From the IMG/VR virus record IMGVR_UViG_3300030419_004788, positions 58,977 through 122,976 of that record: a stretch of DNA of 64,000 nucleotides; one strand, given 5' to 3'. Positions 1 to 60,871 of the stretch are shown piece after piece (the first letter of the stretch is position 1; every line of letters begins with the position of its first letter). Both the position numbers and the translations under genes were made by a program. The DNA comes from a virus. Under the pieces are notes generated by a model. It was not told where the DNA came from. It saw nothing but the letters and a program-made list of their open reading frames with translations, and made no database searches.

Positions 1-3000
1 AATGCAATCAGGATTCGTACAACATCGTTCTGTGTTTTTATCGTAACATGTCCCACCACAACATTGCTGGTCTGTTCCGGGAACATCAGGACAACAAACA
101 CAATCATAGGGAAAGTCCATATCATATTTACAACAACAAGACTCTGAGCCAGAGTCAGCATTAACCATGTCTGGACACATGGTGTTGTTTTGGCAACAGT
201 GTGAACCATAGTCTGGTCCTCCATCTCGATTGTCGTAACATATTCCGTTACAACATCCAGAGTCTGGATGCCCATACGGGTCGGGATTAACTTTTTTATT
301 CCAACCAGTACTTTCTGTACAGAAACATTCCTCTGTAGTACCCAACCATTTACAAGGAAGAACACATTGTCCAGTTATTTCACAACATTCCTTTCTAAGC
401 ATATGTACACCATTACAACATTCATCATAATCAGGGTCATTCTCATAGCACGCGCCCTTTCCTTCCCAACCACAGTGATTCACTCCTTCGCATGGCGACC
501 CACCTTCACTATTTCGATATAGACAAGGACAATCTTGTCCTGTAAATGCACCAATTGCATCAACATCCACACCATCACATCCTTGTACTGTTGAACAACA
601 AACCCAGTTTCCAGTCGCTGTGCAATTAAAGTCATTTTCTGGGTCGTAACTTATATTACCACCACAATCCCACTCCATTGCCCATCCTGTACAACATTCT
701 CCAAACCATTCTGGTTCGTGTTCGTGTCCAGGCTTGGGTTCACCGGCATCATTACACTCATTTGCAACACAGTTATAACCCATCTCAGTACCGCACACTC
801 TCGGAATAACATAGGAATCCCCATTGCAGTGGTATCTTTCTTCCCAACCACAACAATTTACATTACCATCCCAGCCAGGACAACACGATTCGGGGGTTTG
901 TATCGGGTCACCCAATTTGTCTACTGCATCTGGAATAGTGTTGCCGTTATCACAACAAAGTTTTTCTTTAGAATCAGCACCTTGAATACTCAGACAACAA
1001 GTTTCACCCGGATGAGTGATTATATTATTTTCAATATGTGGATTTAGACAACACGATGGGTCGGGGTCATGCAAAGAATGAGCGCAACATGATTCTCCAG
1101 GTTGAGTCCACTTTGTTTTACATGTTTGATTTGCCCTGAACTGGTAAGAACCATCATCAACAGGACAAGTATTATGGTCTGTAATATAACAACCAACATC
1201 ACCCTCTGTGCCTGTGGGGAAACATGCACCCCAATCGCAAAAACCTGCTGGACCAGGCAAATCATTCCATTGTCCACCAATACCGATACATCCATTTACA
1301 GTATTACATCTACTGCACCAACACTTTCCTGTGTTAGAATCCCACATACCACCCCAAGTATTACATCCACTTTCTTGATAACAATTTTGACATCCACATT
1401 CTATAATGTTCGCACTGCCAGTACATGGGTCGGGGTTATCATCATAGAATATACCACCCTCTTTACAACATGTAGCGGGTTCATAACCAATACCATCAAA
1501 CCATTCAGAGAAACAACAATACTCTGCATCACCATGCCCATCTACTTGCCGTGTACCACCACAACATTTTCCACTTGCAGAGCCGCAACATTCTTGTCCA
1601 GGCATACAACAATTTGCAGGGTCGCCACTCCCCATAGTTGAACCACAATAAAAACCACCAGGACAATCTGTTGGCCAGTATCCGCAACATCTTTCTTCTA
1701 CACAATCACCATCAATACATGTCCAACCGCATGTATCTTCACATTCAAAAGTAACTGGACCACCAACACCAAAACAATCTGTTCCAATTCCACAATCGTT
1801 TACCCCATCACCATCTAAATCTAAACACCCGTTACAGTTTGGAAAATCCCCTTCTTGTTGTGCTGGTCTACAACATCTATAGAATACACTTCTCATCCAC
1901 GGTGGATTGTTTGAATCGATATTTTCACAATCATCTAATGGACTAGGTTCAAATGGATGCCAACAAGTTCCACTACATTGACCACCAAACTGTGGCCAAT
2001 ATGGTAAACATGAATCACCACCTGCCCAACAACAACAACAATATTGTGATGGCTCCCAACACATAAATGCTGTCATAATGTCACATACACTATCACACCC
2101 ATGAAATCCACCACCTCCTGCTTGACATGAACCCTCTGTGGTGTGTATGCATCGTGCGAAAGGTGTATTTGGGTCTACACAACATGCACCATAACAACTA
2201 CCTACATTACAATCTATACATTGTCCTGGATTTGATAAATCATTTTTCTGGTCACCACATTCTCCATTACAACAGCAAGAACCATCTGGACAATCAGAAT
2301 CAGTTGCACAAAGTTCACCAGGGCACACTTCACATACTCCATCATCATTACAACAGAATTGATACCCACCAAAAAGACAATCAGGAACTGGTCCAGTGCC
2401 CACACAACCAGCGCAACAAGAGAAATCACTTGATAAATTTTCACATGTAGTATTGGAGAAAGAACCTCCCGATGCCGTACATGATTCTTGTGTACTATCA
2501 TTTAAAACTGACTCACCATCCACACAAGTACAGCAACAACCACCGCATGAAATTGTATCACAAGATGTACCACTTCCTTGAAATTCACCACCACATGCAC
2601 TTTCTTCTGTCATGGAACATACACCATCAGTGCAACATGCACCAAAACCAAAATTACAAATGCTTGATTTTCCACATTGACAACTTCCTATTGAAGCATC
2701 TGGACAAACGCCTGAGTGCCAACTACCACCAATATATTCACACTCTGAGAATGTTAAATTTTTACAACAGTTAGTTTGTTCTTCTATAGGAGCATCACAA
2801 CAATTACACTGTGAAGAATTTAAACAACAAATTCCTGTGTCACCAAAACAACAAATATCCGTTTCACAGTCAGTTCCTGGTCCCATGAATATACCACCAA
2901 CAGATAAACATTCTTGATTTGTTACATCATAACATTGTTCAAGTTGTTCAAGACAACATGCTCCAACTACAACACTATGGTCGCAACAATCAACACTTCC

Positions 3001-42071: not shown

Positions 42072-43985
42072 ATGGCATTTCGTACTCGTAGAAATTCTAG
42101 ACGAAGAACTAAAAAACCAATAGAACAAAAGAAATTGGTTGGTGAGGGATTCTTTATAGGTTTAGATTTTGTCACTAGAATATCTGAAATCGTTGATAGC
42201 GTAGAATCTTTTGCAGTTAATCCTAATATTCTTTTTAAGGGTGATAGTGTTTTAGTGGACTATGGTGATGCACTAAAAGGAAAAAAGAGGATTAGGGATG
42301 AAATTCAAACCTTCTTTGAAGCAACCGCAGTTAAGGGAGATACACTTACATGTACCAATGGTGAGTTTCTTGACGAAAGAACTGGTGACCCAACAACATA
42401 TAATTTGTCTGGTACTTACACATTAGTAAGTTTTAATCCTAACACACTTATAGCATTACTTACTAAAGTTTCTGTAAATAATGAAAGTTCGACATACTCT
42501 AGATATGACAAAGACTTTTTCATCAATGGTTCTTTACAATGGACCACATCGTCAAGCACACAAGAAAACAAAACAGAACAAATCAACTCGTTGGTTAATC
42601 GTATTGGTAAACATTCTGTAAACTCTTTTTATTCTATATTTAAAAGAATTCTACCAAACGACACATTAGATATTAAAATAGGAAGCAACATATCTTCTTA
42701 TACAGTTTCTTCATACTATGTCGATGCAGAAAATATGGAACATATAGAATTGGTTGAAGATGTCCCCACAGATACCACTTTATTTGGCAGTGAAGTATTT
42801 GTCATATTAAGAAGAAAAGAAATAGAGGAAAGTAGAAATCCTTCACTTCCACCACAAGTTGGTGTAGGCATGGGTGGTGGTAGTGAATCTATGCTACCAG
42901 ATTCACCATCACGAACAACTTCTGTTTGGGTTTGTTGTAATCCTACTGGCTCTCCTGCCGGACATTGTGTTACTGACAAAACATTTAATGAAGACGACTG
43001 TATTGGAGAGGGGGGAACTTGGACAGAAAGTAATTGGTTGGGTTGCAACCAGGCAGGTATATGTGAAGGGGAAGTTGAAACAGCAGTCCCGAACCAAAAC
43101 GAAGTATTAGATTTGGTAAAATCTGCACAGGAAACACTCACTCATTTACAGAATAGAAACTCCACACTTCCAAGAACATCTACTGCTAATAGTTCTATGT
43201 TATCAAATCTTCAGACTGCAAAAGAGAAATGGCAACAGTCTGGAAAGAAAACACTTAATGTTTCTATAGAAACAGATAGTAAAGGTACTTGGTCATATGT
43301 AATTAACGGAAAAACAAAACCCACACTAGAATTAGATGCAGGTAAAACCTACAGGTTTAACATTTCTCATATATCAAATGGTATAAAAGGATTTACAAAC
43401 ATGTCCCATGAGTTTACTATTGTAGGGGAAAATGGCGAAAATCTTGCAGGGAATCACACATACTCTACATCAAAGATGGGAAGCAGAGGAGCATATGTTT
43501 ATTTCACAATACCAACAAATAGAATTACTTTAAAATATATGTGCAAAGAAAGAACTGTAGAAGGTAGTACAATAAAAGTTATTATGACCAGAGAACAGAA
43601 AAGACAAATTTCATATAAACCGACAGCGGCGCCATCACATCCAGGCTGGGTTTGTTGTCATGACGATGGTCAAGGTGGCTCTTATTGTGATACTGACTTA
43701 TCAGTAAATAAATCGGACTGTAGTGGAATGGGAGGGCGTTGGGTTCAAGGGCATTGCAACATTGGATGTCCTTGTTGTGCAGAACCAGAACAAAAAACAG
43801 CAGAACAAATTTGCAATGAGAATCCAAATACACACTGGATGGCTGGTACAAACGGAAACTCAGGTTATTGTATGCAAGGTGCTTCCCACTCAACTACCAC
43901 ACAAACAAATACAAGTAGTACAAGTAATGGAACAAGTACAAGTGGTGGAACAAGTACAAGTGGTGGAATGAGTTCTGGATATTAA
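42072..43985 (+). CDS. Protein with Cys-rich WVCC modules and a cupredoxin-like beta domain, 637 aa
   Basis: YVINGKTKPTLELDAGKTYRFN...HEFTI...GAYVYFTIP...LKYMC; two WVCC..C..GG.W modules; Ser/Thr/Gly tail. Confidence 0.55.
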   Translation: MAFRTRRNSRRRTKKPIEQKKLVGEGFFIGLDFVTRISEIVDSVESFAVNPNILFKGDSVLVDYGDALKGKKRIRDEIQTFFEATAVKGDTLTCTNGEFLDERTGDPTTYNLSGTYTLVSFNPNTLIALLTKVSVNNESSTYSRYDKDFFINGSLQWTTSSSTQENKTEQINSLVNRIGKHSVNSFYSIFKRILPNDTLDIKIGSNISSYTVSSYYVDAENMEHIELVEDVPTDTTLFGSEVFVILRRKEIEESRNPSLPPQVGVGMGGGSESMLPDSPSRTTSVWVCCNPTGSPAGHCVTDKTFNEDDCIGEGGTWTESNWLGCNQAGICEGEVETAVPNQNEVLDLVKSAQETLTHLQNRNSTLPRTSTANSSMLSNLQTAKEKWQQSGKKTLNVSIETDSKGTWSYVINGKTKPTLELDAGKTYRFNISHISNGIKGFTNMSHEFTIVGENGENLAGNHTYSTSKMGSRGAYVYFTIPTNRITLKYMCKERTVEGSTIKVIMTREQKRQISYKPTAAPSHPGWVCCHDDGQGGSYCDTDLSVNKSDCSGMGGRWVQGHCNIGCPCCAEPEQKTAEQICNENPNTHWMAGTNGNSGYCMQGASHSTTTQTNTSSTSNGTSTSGGTSTSGGMSSGY

Positions 43986-46484: not shown

Positions 46485-46937
46485 TTATTTATGCTCATTT
46501 TTAAACCTATTCTCTAAAAGTGATGTTAATTTAGTTTCAAAATCAGAATTGTCGTATGCTCCTCTGCCCTTGTTGACAAGTCTGGTAGTTAGTGCAATGT
46601 TTTCTAAATGATAACCTTTACTACTATCCAATCTATCTACAGAAGGTGCGAAAGGAGAATGTGCCACAAACAAATCTTCTACCGACATATCAACACCTAA
46701 CCAATAACATTTTCCCTTTTGCTTTAACCATAATTTTTTTAAATCATCTTTTTCTATTGTAATTTCGTGTCTTCTGGTACTTTGATTTCCTTTACGAAGT
46801 CTACCAGAAAGTTTTGGATTGTTTTCAATTCTTGGTCCTGCGGCGCCATGTTTGGAAGACATGTTGGTATTGGTCCAAAGTCTTGTCCAATACTTTTTAT
46901 ATTTTTTATCTGTCACATATTTTGTATAATCATCCAT
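46485..46937 (-). CDS. HNH-like phage endonuclease-domain protein
   Basis: LKKLWLKQKGKCYWLG...PSVDRLDSSKGYHLENIAL...VN; start MDDYTK after AAGGA RBS. Confidence 0.65.
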   Translation of the reverse strand: MDDYTKYVTDKKYKKYWTRLWTNTNMSSKHGAAGPRIENNPKLSGRLRKGNQSTRRHEITIEKDDLKKLWLKQKGKCYWLGVDMSVEDLFVAHSPFAPSVDRLDSSKGYHLENIALTTRLVNKGRGAYDNSDFETKLTSLLENRFKNEHK

Positions 46938-46959
46938 GTTATATTTCCTTTTTCTATTA

Positions 46960-46987
46960 ATTATACCACAACATAAAAAGATGTCAA
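46960..46987 (-). promoter_or_regulatory. Sigma70-type promoter TTGACA-N16-TATAAT
   Basis: Perfect hexamers with TG extension. Confidence 0.8.
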
Positions 46988-46988
46988 A

Positions 46989-47500
46989 TAAAAAAGTCGG
47001 GTTTCGTGCCACGAACCTCTATACAGAGAACACTACTAACCGACTTTCTTATTCGTCCCCACTGCGAGGCCTCACAGTGTAAAATGGTAATGAATCTTAC
47101 ATCATCTTCACACCCGAAGGTGTCAACAAATGCCTCTACTTTTCCACAAGGACGGATGTTTACTTGGTGGTTCGGATACGGTTTGCAATTTTCACCATCG
47201 TCCGATTAATCCCTCAGGCGCGCGCTTGGGAAACTATCCATGCTTCTGCATCACCAAATTAATTGTCGAATCGGGGAAGGAGGAGTCCTTCATCTACTGT
47301 GGTGGCAGTGGAAGTGTCTTCCTTCCACTTCCCCAATTCAATTTATCACACTCCGACAGGATTCAGCATACCTGTAACTTTCGGGAACACTACTGGTTAT
47401 TCCTACTCGCACTACGGCTGTTCTAGTTATAAACTGCTACATCCATTTGGACATTCACACTCCACTACAGAGAACCGCATACTTTATTTCGCATAACAAA
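46989..47500 (-). ncRNA. Candidate large structured non-coding RNA (boundaries approximate)
   Basis: No credible CDS; GC richer than flanks; many hairpins, including ACACC-TTCG-GGTGT, GTGGAAG/CTTCCAC and CACTGTGAG/CTCGCAGTG; closing AAAGTCGG/CCGACTTT stem plus U-tract. Confidence 0.6.
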
Positions 47501-47656
47501 AATTATTCAGTCACGGAGTTAGTGCAGGTCATGACCCCTGCACAAAAATTATTCACTTTTCAAACCTAACTAAATTCTTGAATGGGCTTAATCACCGTAA
47601 GGTCTTCCCCCATCCAAGAGGAAATGAATGGAATCGTTAGATTCCAAAAGAATCGT

Positions 47657-47911
47657 TTACACGATTCCAGCACGGATGGCGAATGGGTTATCTGTGTAAC
47701 CGTGGAAATCCATCCCATAACAAGTTGTACCATTGTCAAGTGTGCGAGTAGTAACTTCCCAGTTGCCATACTTTTCTACTTGCTCTTTAATGTTGCTCAT
47801 TGTGGCACGAAGATTTTTAATACCAAATCTGCTATATGCTTGCTTTGGTGTAATGTCCCAACCTCGTGAAAGGTGATTCATCAATCGTGCTTTTTTTGTG
47901 TATACTGCCAT
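47657..47911 (-). CDS. Small helix-turn-helix protein
   Basis: MAVYTKKARLMNHLSRGWDITPKQAYSRFGIKNLRATMSNIK; start after CAGGAG. Confidence 0.65.
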   Translation of the reverse strand: MAVYTKKARLMNHLSRGWDITPKQAYSRFGIKNLRATMSNIKEQVEKYGNWEVTTRTLDNGTTCYGMDFHGYTDNPFAIRAGIV

Positions 47912-48024
47912 AGTCCTAAAACTCCTGTCTTTGCGGTTCTCACTGTTGAAGGATTTTGATGCACACCGCAATACATCTGTTCCTTAATTGTCATACAAGT
48001 ATTATACTTTATATTAGTCGCCAT

Positions 48025-58617: not shown

Positions 58618-60871
58618 GTTGATGGAAAAAACCCAAGTTAATCGTGCTACCAAGGATATCCTTGCTAAGTGTATGGCAACAGAGGACTTACGAGTCATTC
58701 ATGATGCAAATGCTGAAACTGCGTATTTCGATACTGAAAATCGGGTTTTATGTCTTCCTGTCTGGGAAGATATGTCAAATGCTACCTATGACATGCTTGT
58801 GGGACATGAAGTATCTCACGCATTGCACACTCCAAAAGAGGGTTGGCAAAAGTTTGTCGGTGAAGGTAAAGGTTCACGCATTCGCCACATGTTCTGCAAC
58901 ATTGTTGAAGATGCACGAATCGAACGACTTATTAAAGATAAATTTCCTGGCATTCGCCGTGACTTTGCTACCGCATATGCGGAACTACACGAACGAGATT
59001 TGTTTGAACTAGCAAATCGTACAATCGATATTAATATGCCACTCATTGACCGATTGAACCTTCACTTCAAGTTGGGTTTGTTCGGTTTGGAAACAATTCC
59101 ATTTGCTGATGATGAACAACAATATGTTACTCGCATGGCCGACACAGTAACATTTGAAGATGTTGTTGCACTTGCAAAAGAATTGTACGAAAAACATCAA
59201 GACGAATTAGAAGATGAAGATGAAAATCAACCACAATCTGGTTCGCAATCTGAATCTGGTGATGGTGAATCACAAGATGGTGAATCACAAGATGGTTCAC
59301 AGTCTGGTTCAGAATCTGAAGATGGTGATGAAGAAGAAGGTCAAAATTCTGGTGATGGTGACGAATCTGGTGAAGATTCTGGTCAATCACAAACCGATGA
59401 TACTGATGATGGTGAAGGTGCTGAATCTGGTGAAGGTGAACAACAGCAATCTGGTGATGGTCAATCTGGTTTAGATTATGACGATTACCAATCAGGTGTT
59501 GGACAACCAAGTGCAGGTTCAACTCAAAACGCATTTGAAAATGGTGTCAATGACCTTCGTGCTGAAAATGGTACTCATCATGAGTATCATTCACTACCAA
59601 CAATGAAACTTGAAAACTGTGTAGTCGATTACAACGAAGTAGCCAGCATTTGGGAATCATTTGAGAATAAGTTTTCTGAAAAAGATGAAACTTACTTCCA
59701 ACGATATACTGAAAAAACCGAAAAATCAAAAGCCGATTGTCGTGAATTTCTTCAACGAACTAAATCAACTGTTGCACAAATGGTTCAACACTTCCAAATG
59801 AAGCAAGCAGCCGATGCCGCAAAACGAACAGATATTGCAAAAACTGGCGTTCTTGATACAGTCAACATGATTAACTACCGATGGAGTGAAGACATCTTCC
59901 TAAAGAATGAAGTTCACGCAGATGGTAAAAATCATGGAATCGTCATGTATCTTGACTGGTCTGGTTCAATGTGCAATATCATCAAGGATACAGTTGAACA
60001 ACTTTTAATCCTTACAGAATTCTGTCAAAAGGTTAATATTCCTTTTGATGTCTACGCATTCTCAAGCAAGAATCATCCATCATTGAATGAAACCGATGAT
60101 GAAGGAAAACAATTCAATCACCAATACAACGAACATGGTGTCGATGGCGTATTGCAACCACATGGTTTCTCACTGATTCAATTCTTGTCTTCAGATATGA
60201 AAACAAACGAATACAAGCAAGCAGTTCAAAAATTGTACTACTTGGGTGAAGCAAGTTCATACTACAGTGGTGGATACACTTATCCTTCCGAATTGGGAAT
60301 GGGTTGCACGCCTTTGAACGAAGCAATCATGTGTGCTTTCCATCAAATCCCTGAATTCCAAGCAAAGCATGGTATTCAAATCGTCAATACAGTATTCCTT
60401 ACTGATGGTGACGGACACTCAATGGGTGCGAGTCGTGGGTGGTCTGGAAACAAAGTACTAGTACACGACCCAAAAACTCGTAAAGATTACAATGTCGGTA
60501 ACAAAGGATATAGTGATGAAACTAACACTTATCTTCAGATTCTTCAAGAAAGAACTGGCACAAACCTTATCGGTATTCGTCTTCACGATTCAAAGCATGT
60601 GAAAGGCCTTCAGCATCGATACTTTGGAGGTGAAGATATGACTTCTGCTGCCAAGTCGTGGAAAACAAATAACTTTATCGCAGTCGAAGGACACGGATAC
60701 GACAAACTGTTCATCGTTCGTGGTAATCTTCAAGTTGAAACAGAAGCACTTGATAATCTATCAGAAGACGCATCCTATGCGAAAATCAAGAATGCATTCA
60801 TGAAGGGTGCAAATAACCAAAAGAGCAGTCGAGTCATCGCAACTCAAATGGTAGATATCATCGCCGCATAA
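58616..60871 (+). CDS. CobT-like VWA protein with an N-terminal HExxH metallopeptidase-like domain and an acidic linker
   Basis: AYFDTENRVL.LP.W...DMLVGHEVSHAL; VMYLDWSGSM (MIDAS); GCTP; VFLTDGD; start moved to the ATG 6 nt after TACAAT. Confidence 0.85.
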   Translation: MLMEKTQVNRATKDILAKCMATEDLRVIHDANAETAYFDTENRVLCLPVWEDMSNATYDMLVGHEVSHALHTPKEGWQKFVGEGKGSRIRHMFCNIVEDARIERLIKDKFPGIRRDFATAYAELHERDLFELANRTIDINMPLIDRLNLHFKLGLFGLETIPFADDEQQYVTRMADTVTFEDVVALAKELYEKHQDELEDEDENQPQSGSQSESGDGESQDGESQDGSQSGSESEDGDEEEGQNSGDGDESGEDSGQSQTDDTDDGEGAESGEGEQQQSGDGQSGLDYDDYQSGVGQPSAGSTQNAFENGVNDLRAENGTHHEYHSLPTMKLENCVVDYNEVASIWESFENKFSEKDETYFQRYTEKTEKSKADCREFLQRTKSTVAQMVQHFQMKQAADAAKRTDIAKTGVLDTVNMINYRWSEDIFLKNEVHADGKNHGIVMYLDWSGSMCNIIKDTVEQLLILTEFCQKVNIPFDVYAFSSKNHPSLNETDDEGKQFNHQYNEHGVDGVLQPHGFSLIQFLSSDMKTNEYKQAVQKLYYLGEASSYYSGGYTYPSELGMGCTPLNEAIMCAFHQIPEFQAKHGIQIVNTVFLTDGDGHSMGASRGWSGNKVLVHDPKTRKDYNVGNKGYSDETNTYLQILQERTGTNLIGIRLHDSKHVKGLQHRYFGGEDMTSAAKSWKTNNFIAVEGHGYDKLFIVRGNLQVETEALDNLSEDASYAKIKNAFMKGANNQKSSRVIATQMVDIIAA

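Follow-up and report, generated by a model that had tools for sequence, protein, structure and literature searches.

A modular, terminator-bounded non-coding RNA locus headed by a manA-like domain in an uncultured marine T4-like phage

What does a gene-free gap of 719 bp encode in an otherwise tightly packed region of a phage genome? The gap occupies positions 46938-47656 of a stretch of 64,000 nucleotides (hereafter the window; positions 58,977 to 122,976 of the 123-kb IMG/VR virus record IMGVR_UViG_3300030419_004788) and lies, on the minus strand, between the stop codon of a gene for a winged helix-turn-helix (wHTH)-like protein and the ATG of an endonuclease gene. In the initial annotation about 650 bp without a credible coding sequence had been noticed here, and a single RNA fold of ~500 nt, belonging to the GOLLD or ROOL classes of phage RNAs or to a new class, had been proposed. 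The lack of coding sequence was borne out; no minus-strand open reading frame (ORF) of at least 30 aa was present within 47013-47565. A real folded non-coding RNA was confirmed: the 676-nt minus strand reached -213 kcal/mol, compared with -179 ± 7 kcal/mol for shuffled sequences (z = -4.8; 0 of 20 shuffles equal). It was an ornate structured phage RNA as proposed and not a single fold, since it consists of four autonomous domains, which are ordered and combined differently at other loci. The 5' third was assigned to the catalogued manA family (RF01745). The other three domains, here called A1, A2 and B, have no Rfam family, and for these the term 'new class' holds. We consider it probable that the locus produces a stand-alone, trans-acting, self-assembling multi-domain structural RNA of the phage, and not a leader or riboswitch.

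The identity of the 5' third was determined by covariance model searches. A gathering-score Rfam scan of the whole window found one tRNA only, and no family reached its cut-off at the gap. A permissive cmscan of positions 46800-47800 against all 4227 Rfam families (E ≤ 10), of the kind suggested in the initial annotation, listed neither GOLLD nor ROOL and aligned positions 47346-47542 (minus strand) with the complete manA model (1-192 of 192) at 51.7 bits, the gathering score being 55.2 bits. The E-value was 4e-12 for the 1 kb searched and 1.2e-13 for the whole 123-kb record. Six relatives, obtained through the upstream wHTH-like protein, carried manA in the syntenic position, with scores of 70.2 (L004), 63.7 (L006), 63.2 (L005), 53.6 (L002 and L003, each) and 50.9 bits (L007). 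Because of the full-length match and these orthologues, the domain is taken to be a manA RNA; marine T4-like phages, from one of which the window comes, are also the typical home of the family. As in manA RNAs (Weinberg et al., 2010; PMC2864571), two 5' hairpins with the conserved GUGACUGAAUAA box between them and a pseudoknot were present, and the multi-stem junction aligned in part. The 5' stem-loops (UGCAGG...CCUGCA, CUCCGUGACUGAAUAAU and the UUUUGUU/GCGAAA hairpin) were aligned by cmscan with high posterior probability, the closing helix and two stems of the junction aligned unflagged, and CUCCG, past hairpin 1, was complementary to CGGAG (47350 region) in the model's [[[[[ ]]]]] columns. 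The two hairpins past the CUC/GAG hairpin each contained two non-standard pairs, and the 7+4-bp junction stem was flagged as non-standard (vvvv) and mostly deleted or replaced, with a shorter GGAAUA/UGUUCC stem possible in its place. The window differs from catalogued manA RNAs in the surroundings of the domain: 5' of the region covered by the model stands a conserved leader box, and 3' of that region three extra conserved domains and a terminator follow instead of a gene. The catalogued cis-regulatory placement in a 5' untranslated region, which concerns context rather than structure, does not apply here, as ~350 nt of domains, the terminator and a promoter with 12/12 matches intervene before the next gene.

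The leader box (AAAAGUGAAUAAUUUUUGU, 47542-47560, minus strand) contains UGAAUAAUUUUUGU (47555-47542), which recurs at 47509-47496 within manA. The hairpin that the initial annotation had placed between two 14-bp repeats is manA hairpin 1, which stands between the UGAAUAA box of the family and its second copy in the leader. An (A/C)AGUGAAUAA box was found 5' of the first module in nearly all relatives; in L016 (8920-9060), where the wHTH gene and manA are both missing, it stands directly 5' of module B. Further upstream, between the wHTH gene and the leader box, a terminator-like hairpin (CUUGGAUGGG...CCCAUUCAAG, 47576-47620, minus strand) with a G-rich GGGGGAA element and then a weak U-rich run was identified by reading the sequence. 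Most relatives have an equivalent hairpin with a U-run ahead of manA, and its stems differ (CUGGUGAUG/CAUCACCAG, CCACUUGGG/CCCAAGUGG and others). The G-rich GAUGGGGGAA element was kept while the stem changed, and in most relatives the U-run and the (A/C)AGUGAAUAA box come next. The hairpin may serve to terminate or to process transcripts, or it may belong to the RNA itself.

The pointer to contacts between RNA copies comes from module A2 (47164-47257, minus strand). This module consists of a closing helix (UUGGUGA/CCACCAA), a UGC-AGAA-GCA hairpin, a UCCC/GGGA hairpin with a palindromic loop, and an arm of CGGA/UCCG and AUGGU/ACCGU. The A2 set was enlarged to 17-18 distinct sequences by a metagenome scan. 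Among 17 distinct sequences, 96.6% of cells were paired, compared with 35-43% when the partners were slid; both partners had changed in seven pairs, and the observed covariation score was reached by 0 of 500 shuffles. A search with an exact A2 18-mer found no loci beyond those already collected, and a loose A2 pattern (TTGGTGRTGCANNAGCA) gave chance matches only. The palindromic hexamer GCGCGC (47218-47223) lies within GCGCGCGC (47225-47218) in a loop of 14 nt, which is closed by a 4-bp stem and has surroundings that are ~90% identical among copies. The hexamer was GCGCGC, GCAUGC, UCUAGA or CCUAGG, all self-complementary, in 18 of 18 distinct sequences. At the central pair, AU occurs in 6 sequences, GC likewise in 6 and UA in 5. 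At the outer pair, 12 have GC and 3 have UA, the other two being CCUAGG shifted by an alignment gap. As the covarying bases are adjacent, they cannot pair within one chain, and the loop is predicted to be a symmetric intermolecular kissing (dimerisation) site. The HIV-1 dimerisation initiation site (GCGCGC/GUGCAC) is a symmetric palindromic kissing loop. Kretsch et al. (2025; PMC12286853) took covariation of adjacent bases that keeps the palindrome (GGCC to GAUC or AGCU) as evidence that OLE and GOLLD contain intermolecular kissing loops. The A2 hexamer switches palindromes in the same manner as OLE L9.3 and GOLLD L21a, whereas the domain and its context differ and dimerisation is a prediction here.

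Module B (47054-47154, minus strand) is a compact pseudoknotted domain with ~40 invariant bases. It comprises P1 (CGUCC/GGACG), P2 (UGG/CCA), P3 (a C(UUCG)G hairpin), the invariant 19-mer core GAUGAUGUAAGAUUCAUUA (47106-47088) and P4 (CACUGUG/CGCAGUG), and the GGCC of the P4 loop pairs with AGGC in the junction. The invariant 19-mer was used to collect 30 viral loci, and a covariance model, R1, was built from 19 sequences. R1 scored 99.7 bits in the window and 38-99 bits in 25 other loci, which gave 26 copies altogether. P1, P3 and the invariant core hairpin were 98.5% paired, compared with 30-52% when slid, and five pairs were changed on both sides. P2 and the pseudoknot with P4 were counted from anchored extractions; re-alignment to the model left the P2/P4 register differing between B subfamilies. 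In all 26 sequences the 3-bp P2 was paired, with 7 different combinations of strands, and the junction-loop pseudoknot was GGC/GCC in 18 and AGC/GCU in 8 with none mixed, neither of which was reached by any of 5000 shuffles. P3 ranged from the UUCG hairpin to a 50-nt insert. R1 detected no module B in the five cultured marine T4-like phages S-CREM1, P-SSM2, Syn9, S-PM2 and HTVC008M. When the whole gap and module B were compared with 50,697 phage records no real blastn match was obtained; at that sensitivity the family is absent from cultured phages. The exact 19-mer occurred three times in 185,579 prokaryote genomes, matches that we attribute to chance because R1 gave them only 22-25 bits. The core was not present in the supplementary files examined of the manA motif paper (200 of 438 files, manA.sto in part). 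About 300 nt downstream of the B copy in L023, a match to the tmRNA model RF00023 was observed (2221-2302, minus strand, 51.8 bits), which is probably a tRNA-like piece because it spans only 82 nt.

Module A1 (47268-47339, minus strand) is a long branched hairpin, represented by 13 distinct copies among the viral and metagenome loci. Its 12-bp closing helix (GAAUUGGGGAAG/CUUCCCCGAUUC) surrounds a GGAAG-ACA-CUUCC hairpin and a second hairpin with the C-rich loop CCACCAC. The closing helix was recovered by RNAalifold, with three pairs changed on both sides. Support by covariation in homologues was good for A2 and B and moderate for A1. None of the three modules matched an Rfam family at E ≤ 10 in the window or at E ≤ 0.1 in seven related loci. 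A1 also has ACCUCCUU-like runs; its 3' strand (47270-47290, minus strand) reads CUCCUCCUUCC, or AACCUCCUUCC in most relatives, which we take to resemble the anti-Shine-Dalgarno end of 16S rRNA.

All helices listed in the initial annotation were found in the sequence, and each could be assigned to a domain. GTGCAGG/CCTGCAC is manA hairpin 1 and ACAGG/CCTGT the final stem of manA; GGGGAAG/CTTCCCC around GTGGAAG/CTTCCAC corresponds to module A1; A2 has TCGGA/TCCGA as its stem P4; C(UUCG)G and CACTGTGAG/CTCGCAGTG are P3 and P4 of module B; and AAAGTCGG/CCGACTTT with its U-run is the terminator. The reported repeats were exact as well (the 14-mer at 47496 and 47542, 10-mers at 47022/47466 and 47028/47385). 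The two 10-mers overlap in a 16-mer of the terminator insert (AGUAGUGUUCUCUGUA, 47022-47037, minus strand) and each recurs in manA (47475-47466 and 47394-47385), so that GUAGUG occurs three times in the RNA. By our own estimate, ~0.25 such 10-mer repeats are expected by chance in 721 nt. The same terminator insert is present in L013, and the recurrence could reflect loop mimicry or partial duplication.

The autonomy of the domains was evident from their arrangement in ~45 loci, where A1, A2 and B recur in marine viral and metagenome contigs. The commonest order was manA-B, and besides the manA-A1-A2-B of the window we observed manA-A2-B, manA-A1-B, manA-B-A2, B-A2, manA-A1-A1-A2-B, manA-A2-A1-B and tRNA-B-tRNA. 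When relatives were aligned with the window, modules were present or absent as blocks; L002 and L003 aligned to 47660-47350 and 47161-46959 and not to 47349-47162, which is a module-sized insertion or deletion. In L167 (60-260, minus strand), manA hairpin 1 and a GUGACUGAA box are followed by A2 where the manA junction would be expected. Many loci have a tRNA-Lys gene ~1 kb upstream and a tRNA-Arg gene ~1 kb downstream of the RNA, and in L010 and L020 module B occurs by itself, separated by 2-6 nt from a tRNA gene on either side. In the cultured cyanophage S-CREM1 (L175, OP535465; 10132-10643), manA, as annotated in the deposited record, directly adjoins tRNA-Leu on one side and tRNA-Asn on the other. 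S-CREM1 also has a short 'abiF' RNA match between tRNA-Asn and tRNA-Gly and a wcaG RNA immediately before tRNA-Met, and several catalogued 'cis-regulatory' phage RNAs are therefore passengers of tRNA arrays.

The 3' boundary of the array is formed by an intrinsic terminator (46990-47047, minus strand), with the stem AAAGUCGG/CCGACUUU (47047-46993), a branched insert and then U6 (TTTTTT in the DNA; own fold -12.3 kcal/mol). In L008 the terminator has the plain form AGUCGGUU-UAA-AACCGACU followed by U6. Among 37 distinct arrays, 21 end in a hairpin and a U-run, and in 20 a promoter follows directly that agrees with TTGACA-16-TATAAT at ≥10 of 12 positions; 8 arrays are followed by TATAAATA. This pattern did not depend on the last module or on the following gene. 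In the window the sigma-70 promoter (46960-46987, minus strand), which serves the endonuclease gene, matches TTGACA-16-TATAAT at 12/12 positions and has a TG before the -10 hexamer. No base of the terminator stem belongs to P1 of module B (47058-47054) or to manA, and the hairpins differ freely among relatives. Since none of the modules has a strand in common with the terminator, no switch of the riboswitch type is apparent.

In the mechanism that we propose, the minus strand of the gap would form the non-coding 3' end of a transcription unit and yield an RNA of ~560 nt. The leader box, the manA domain, A1, A2 and B are arranged as beads on a string, the domains each with a terminal helix of their own, and the intrinsic terminator comes last. 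The manA domain would oligomerise, for which the in vitro evidence concerns the family, and the palindromic loop of A2 would dock two copies of the RNA. Module B is an autonomous, tightly folded pseudoknotted unit that in related phages stands alone in tRNA arrays, from which it may be freed by tRNA processing. We favor such a self-assembling, stand-alone RNA over a riboswitch because a cryo-EM preprint of July 2026 reports that kissing loops join other manA RNAs in vitro into pentamer-based octamers, decamers and an icosahedral-like cage of 60 subunits (bioRxiv 10.64898/2026.07.01.735769, in which genomic context is not discussed) and because A2 carries the palindrome signature. The domain anatomy, the covariation, the module shuffling, the boundary of terminator and promoter and the lack of a coding signal are observations, whereas multimer formation by the RNA of the window, the joining or cutting of its modules, its 5' end and its role in infection are matters of inference.

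Several observations weigh against this proposal. The multimerisation of manA was described in an un-reviewed preprint for the isolated ~200-nt motif in vitro, hence for a motif without the 350-nt tail, and the dimerisation of A2 is a prediction. The shuffling of modules fits independent small RNAs equally well as a composite particle. The manA score lies 3.5 bits below the Rfam cut-off, with one of the four junction stems misfitting the model. Directly upstream of manA in the window no convincing sigma-70 promoter was found, and the hairpin at 47620-47576 may terminate transcription that arrives from upstream. In favor of a stand-alone RNA, TTGAC(A/T)-16/17-TACAAT lies directly upstream of manA in L011 and L025. 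As a weak sign of expression, B (47060-47154) and manA (47351-47518) of close relatives are represented among the assembled contigs of two seawater/aquatic RNA libraries; these contigs come from relatives and not from this phage, and they could derive from DNA carry-over. A bolder version of the proposal appears unlikely to us: the manA cores would form a 10- to 60-mer shell in the infected cell, with A1, A2 and B covalently tethered and either displayed on it or packed inside, A2 linking subunits or shells and B as payload. If this were true, the phage would encode a protein-free RNA compartment with exchangeable cargo modules, and other phages would deliver B free from tRNA precursors.

The main alternative, which we hold to be possible and less probable than a composite RNA, with data that fit both, is an array of independent small stable RNAs that are co-transcribed and cut apart by RNase P, Z or E without forming a composite particle. 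Modules do occur alone and in any order, each has its own closing helix and short linkers, and the positions of B between two tRNA genes in L010 and L020 and of manA against two tRNAs in S-CREM1 would suit such processing, as would the location of the stable RNAs rnaC and rnaD in the tRNA region of T4. The window, however, has no flanking tRNAs or known processing signals, its linkers measure just 2-10 nt, and the adjacency of manA and B is preserved in most loci. The A2 palindrome indicates pairing between copies, whether of free A2 or of whole arrays, and this alternative differs from the self-assembling RNA that we prefer solely in the string being cut. A cis-regulatory riboswitch or attenuator, in which a ligand would decide between a stop at the terminator and read-through, is the reading under which manA is filed: both Rfam and Weinberg et al. 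(2010; PMC2864571) list it as a candidate riboswitch that probably acts in cis, its place between regA and purL in P-SSM2 resembles that of a leader, and here a terminator does follow the array. We regard this reading as improbable for this locus, given the ~350 nt of self-contained modules that lie between manA and the terminator, whose stem overlaps no module helix and for which no alternative pairing is apparent. The downstream gene, moreover, has its own 12/12 promoter and varies among relatives (endonuclease, methyltransferase-like and hypothetical proteins), and manA and B are also found within tRNA arrays.

A tie to the gene that happens to follow is considerably less plausible still. 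The RNA might belong to the HNH-type endonuclease, as a guide, an intron-like RNA or a homing-cassette RNA that moves with the gene: the endonuclease gene lies directly 3' of it, L019 has the same opening codons (ATGGATGATTATACAAA) after the same promoter as the endonuclease gene of the window, and the T4 homing endonuclease gene segB is located within a tRNA/stable-RNA region. Yet most loci with the same modules have other genes and no endonuclease downstream, the endonuclease has its own promoter past the terminator of the RNA, and the Rfam scan detected neither group I or II introns nor HEARO, so that we consider this very improbable. A plus-strand protein-coding gene, finally, can hardly be credited. 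Plus-strand ORFs of 67-98 aa do exist in the window, including one of 98 aa at 47130-47426, and of 79-143 aa in relatives, but their frames and lengths are inconsistent between relatives. Mismatches were flat over the codon positions (15/17/17 in the 98-aa antisense ORF, 14/16/17 and 20/19/20 in further comparisons), and gaps specific to single relatives across the span of this ORF included lengths of 1 and 2, neither of them divisible by three. The helices of the locus covary as RNA; the comparison with homologues called for in the initial annotation thus gave covariation and no coding signal.

The likeness to GOLLD and ROOL that had been suspected holds in kind and not in family membership. 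These nanocage RNAs (PMC12286853) are likewise phage-encoded, large and multi-domain, with intermolecular loop covariation, and they likewise lie in or near tRNA islands, as do relatives of the locus with tRNA-Lys and tRNA-Arg genes within ~1 kb or with B between tRNAs; manA is reported to form cages, and the A2 loop has the signature of OLE and GOLLD. In contrast to their one conserved fold, the locus consists of shuffled autonomous modules, and it is the small manA core that would build a cage, if there is one. The T4 RNAs rnaC and rnaD (species 1 and 2) are also small stable RNAs that adjoin tRNA genes and a homing endonuclease gene; they share no similarity with the modules, as R1 found nothing in the T4 tRNA region (69000-74000) at E ≤ 1 and the sequences look unrelated. 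Ocean-VI, a motif of Weinberg et al. (2010) that is not in Rfam, was dropped as a candidate because its AU-rich sequence is unlike any module here.

The manA domain was known before. Neither Rfam nor the literature searched contained the other three motifs, the composite build of the locus, the shuffling of its modules or the loop that switches palindromes. For 16 years manA has been listed among the orphan riboswitch candidates, a reading against which the context described here argues. In marine T4-like phages manA appears to head a terminator-bounded non-coding RNA with exchangeable conserved extra domains, one of which has the covariation signature of RNA-RNA docking while another travels alone in tRNA arrays. 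The locus and its ~45 relatives give a biological context to the isolated motif of the cage preprint, and the three uncatalogued motifs have alignments suited to modelling. The purpose of phage RNA cages is thereby made experimentally addressable, through the assembly of natural long forms and the binding partners of the appended modules.

The source of the window is an uncultured marine T4-like phage. The 123-kb record encodes T4-type baseplate genes and CobS/CobT, the CobS sharing ~65% identity with its cyanomyovirus counterparts and 52% with the one of pelagiphage HTVC008M, and all sequencing runs that contain the stretch are marine. A 637-aa ORF of the window (42072-43985) had no match by tblastn against phage records. 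In the Pelagibacter phage HTVC008M (L191, NC_020484; 5037-5223), a weak full-length match to the manA model was observed (25.9 bits, E 7e-6), upstream of the gene for a single-stranded DNA-binding protein and overlapping an annotated hypothetical ORF of 56 aa. The genes that neighbor the gap lie on the minus strand. Upstream is the 104-aa wHTH-like gene (47657-47971), with a weak match to Pfam HTH_39. Downstream, and outside the RNA, is the HNH/endonuclease VII-like gene of 150 aa (46485-46937), which matched phrog_3322 (endonuclease, 2e-20), phrog_1035 (endonuclease VII, 4e-12) and phrog_3118 (HNH, 8e-11). Together with its promoter (46485-46987, minus strand), this gene looks like an insertion of a free-standing homing-type endonuclease, comparable to segB in the tRNA/stable-RNA region of T4.

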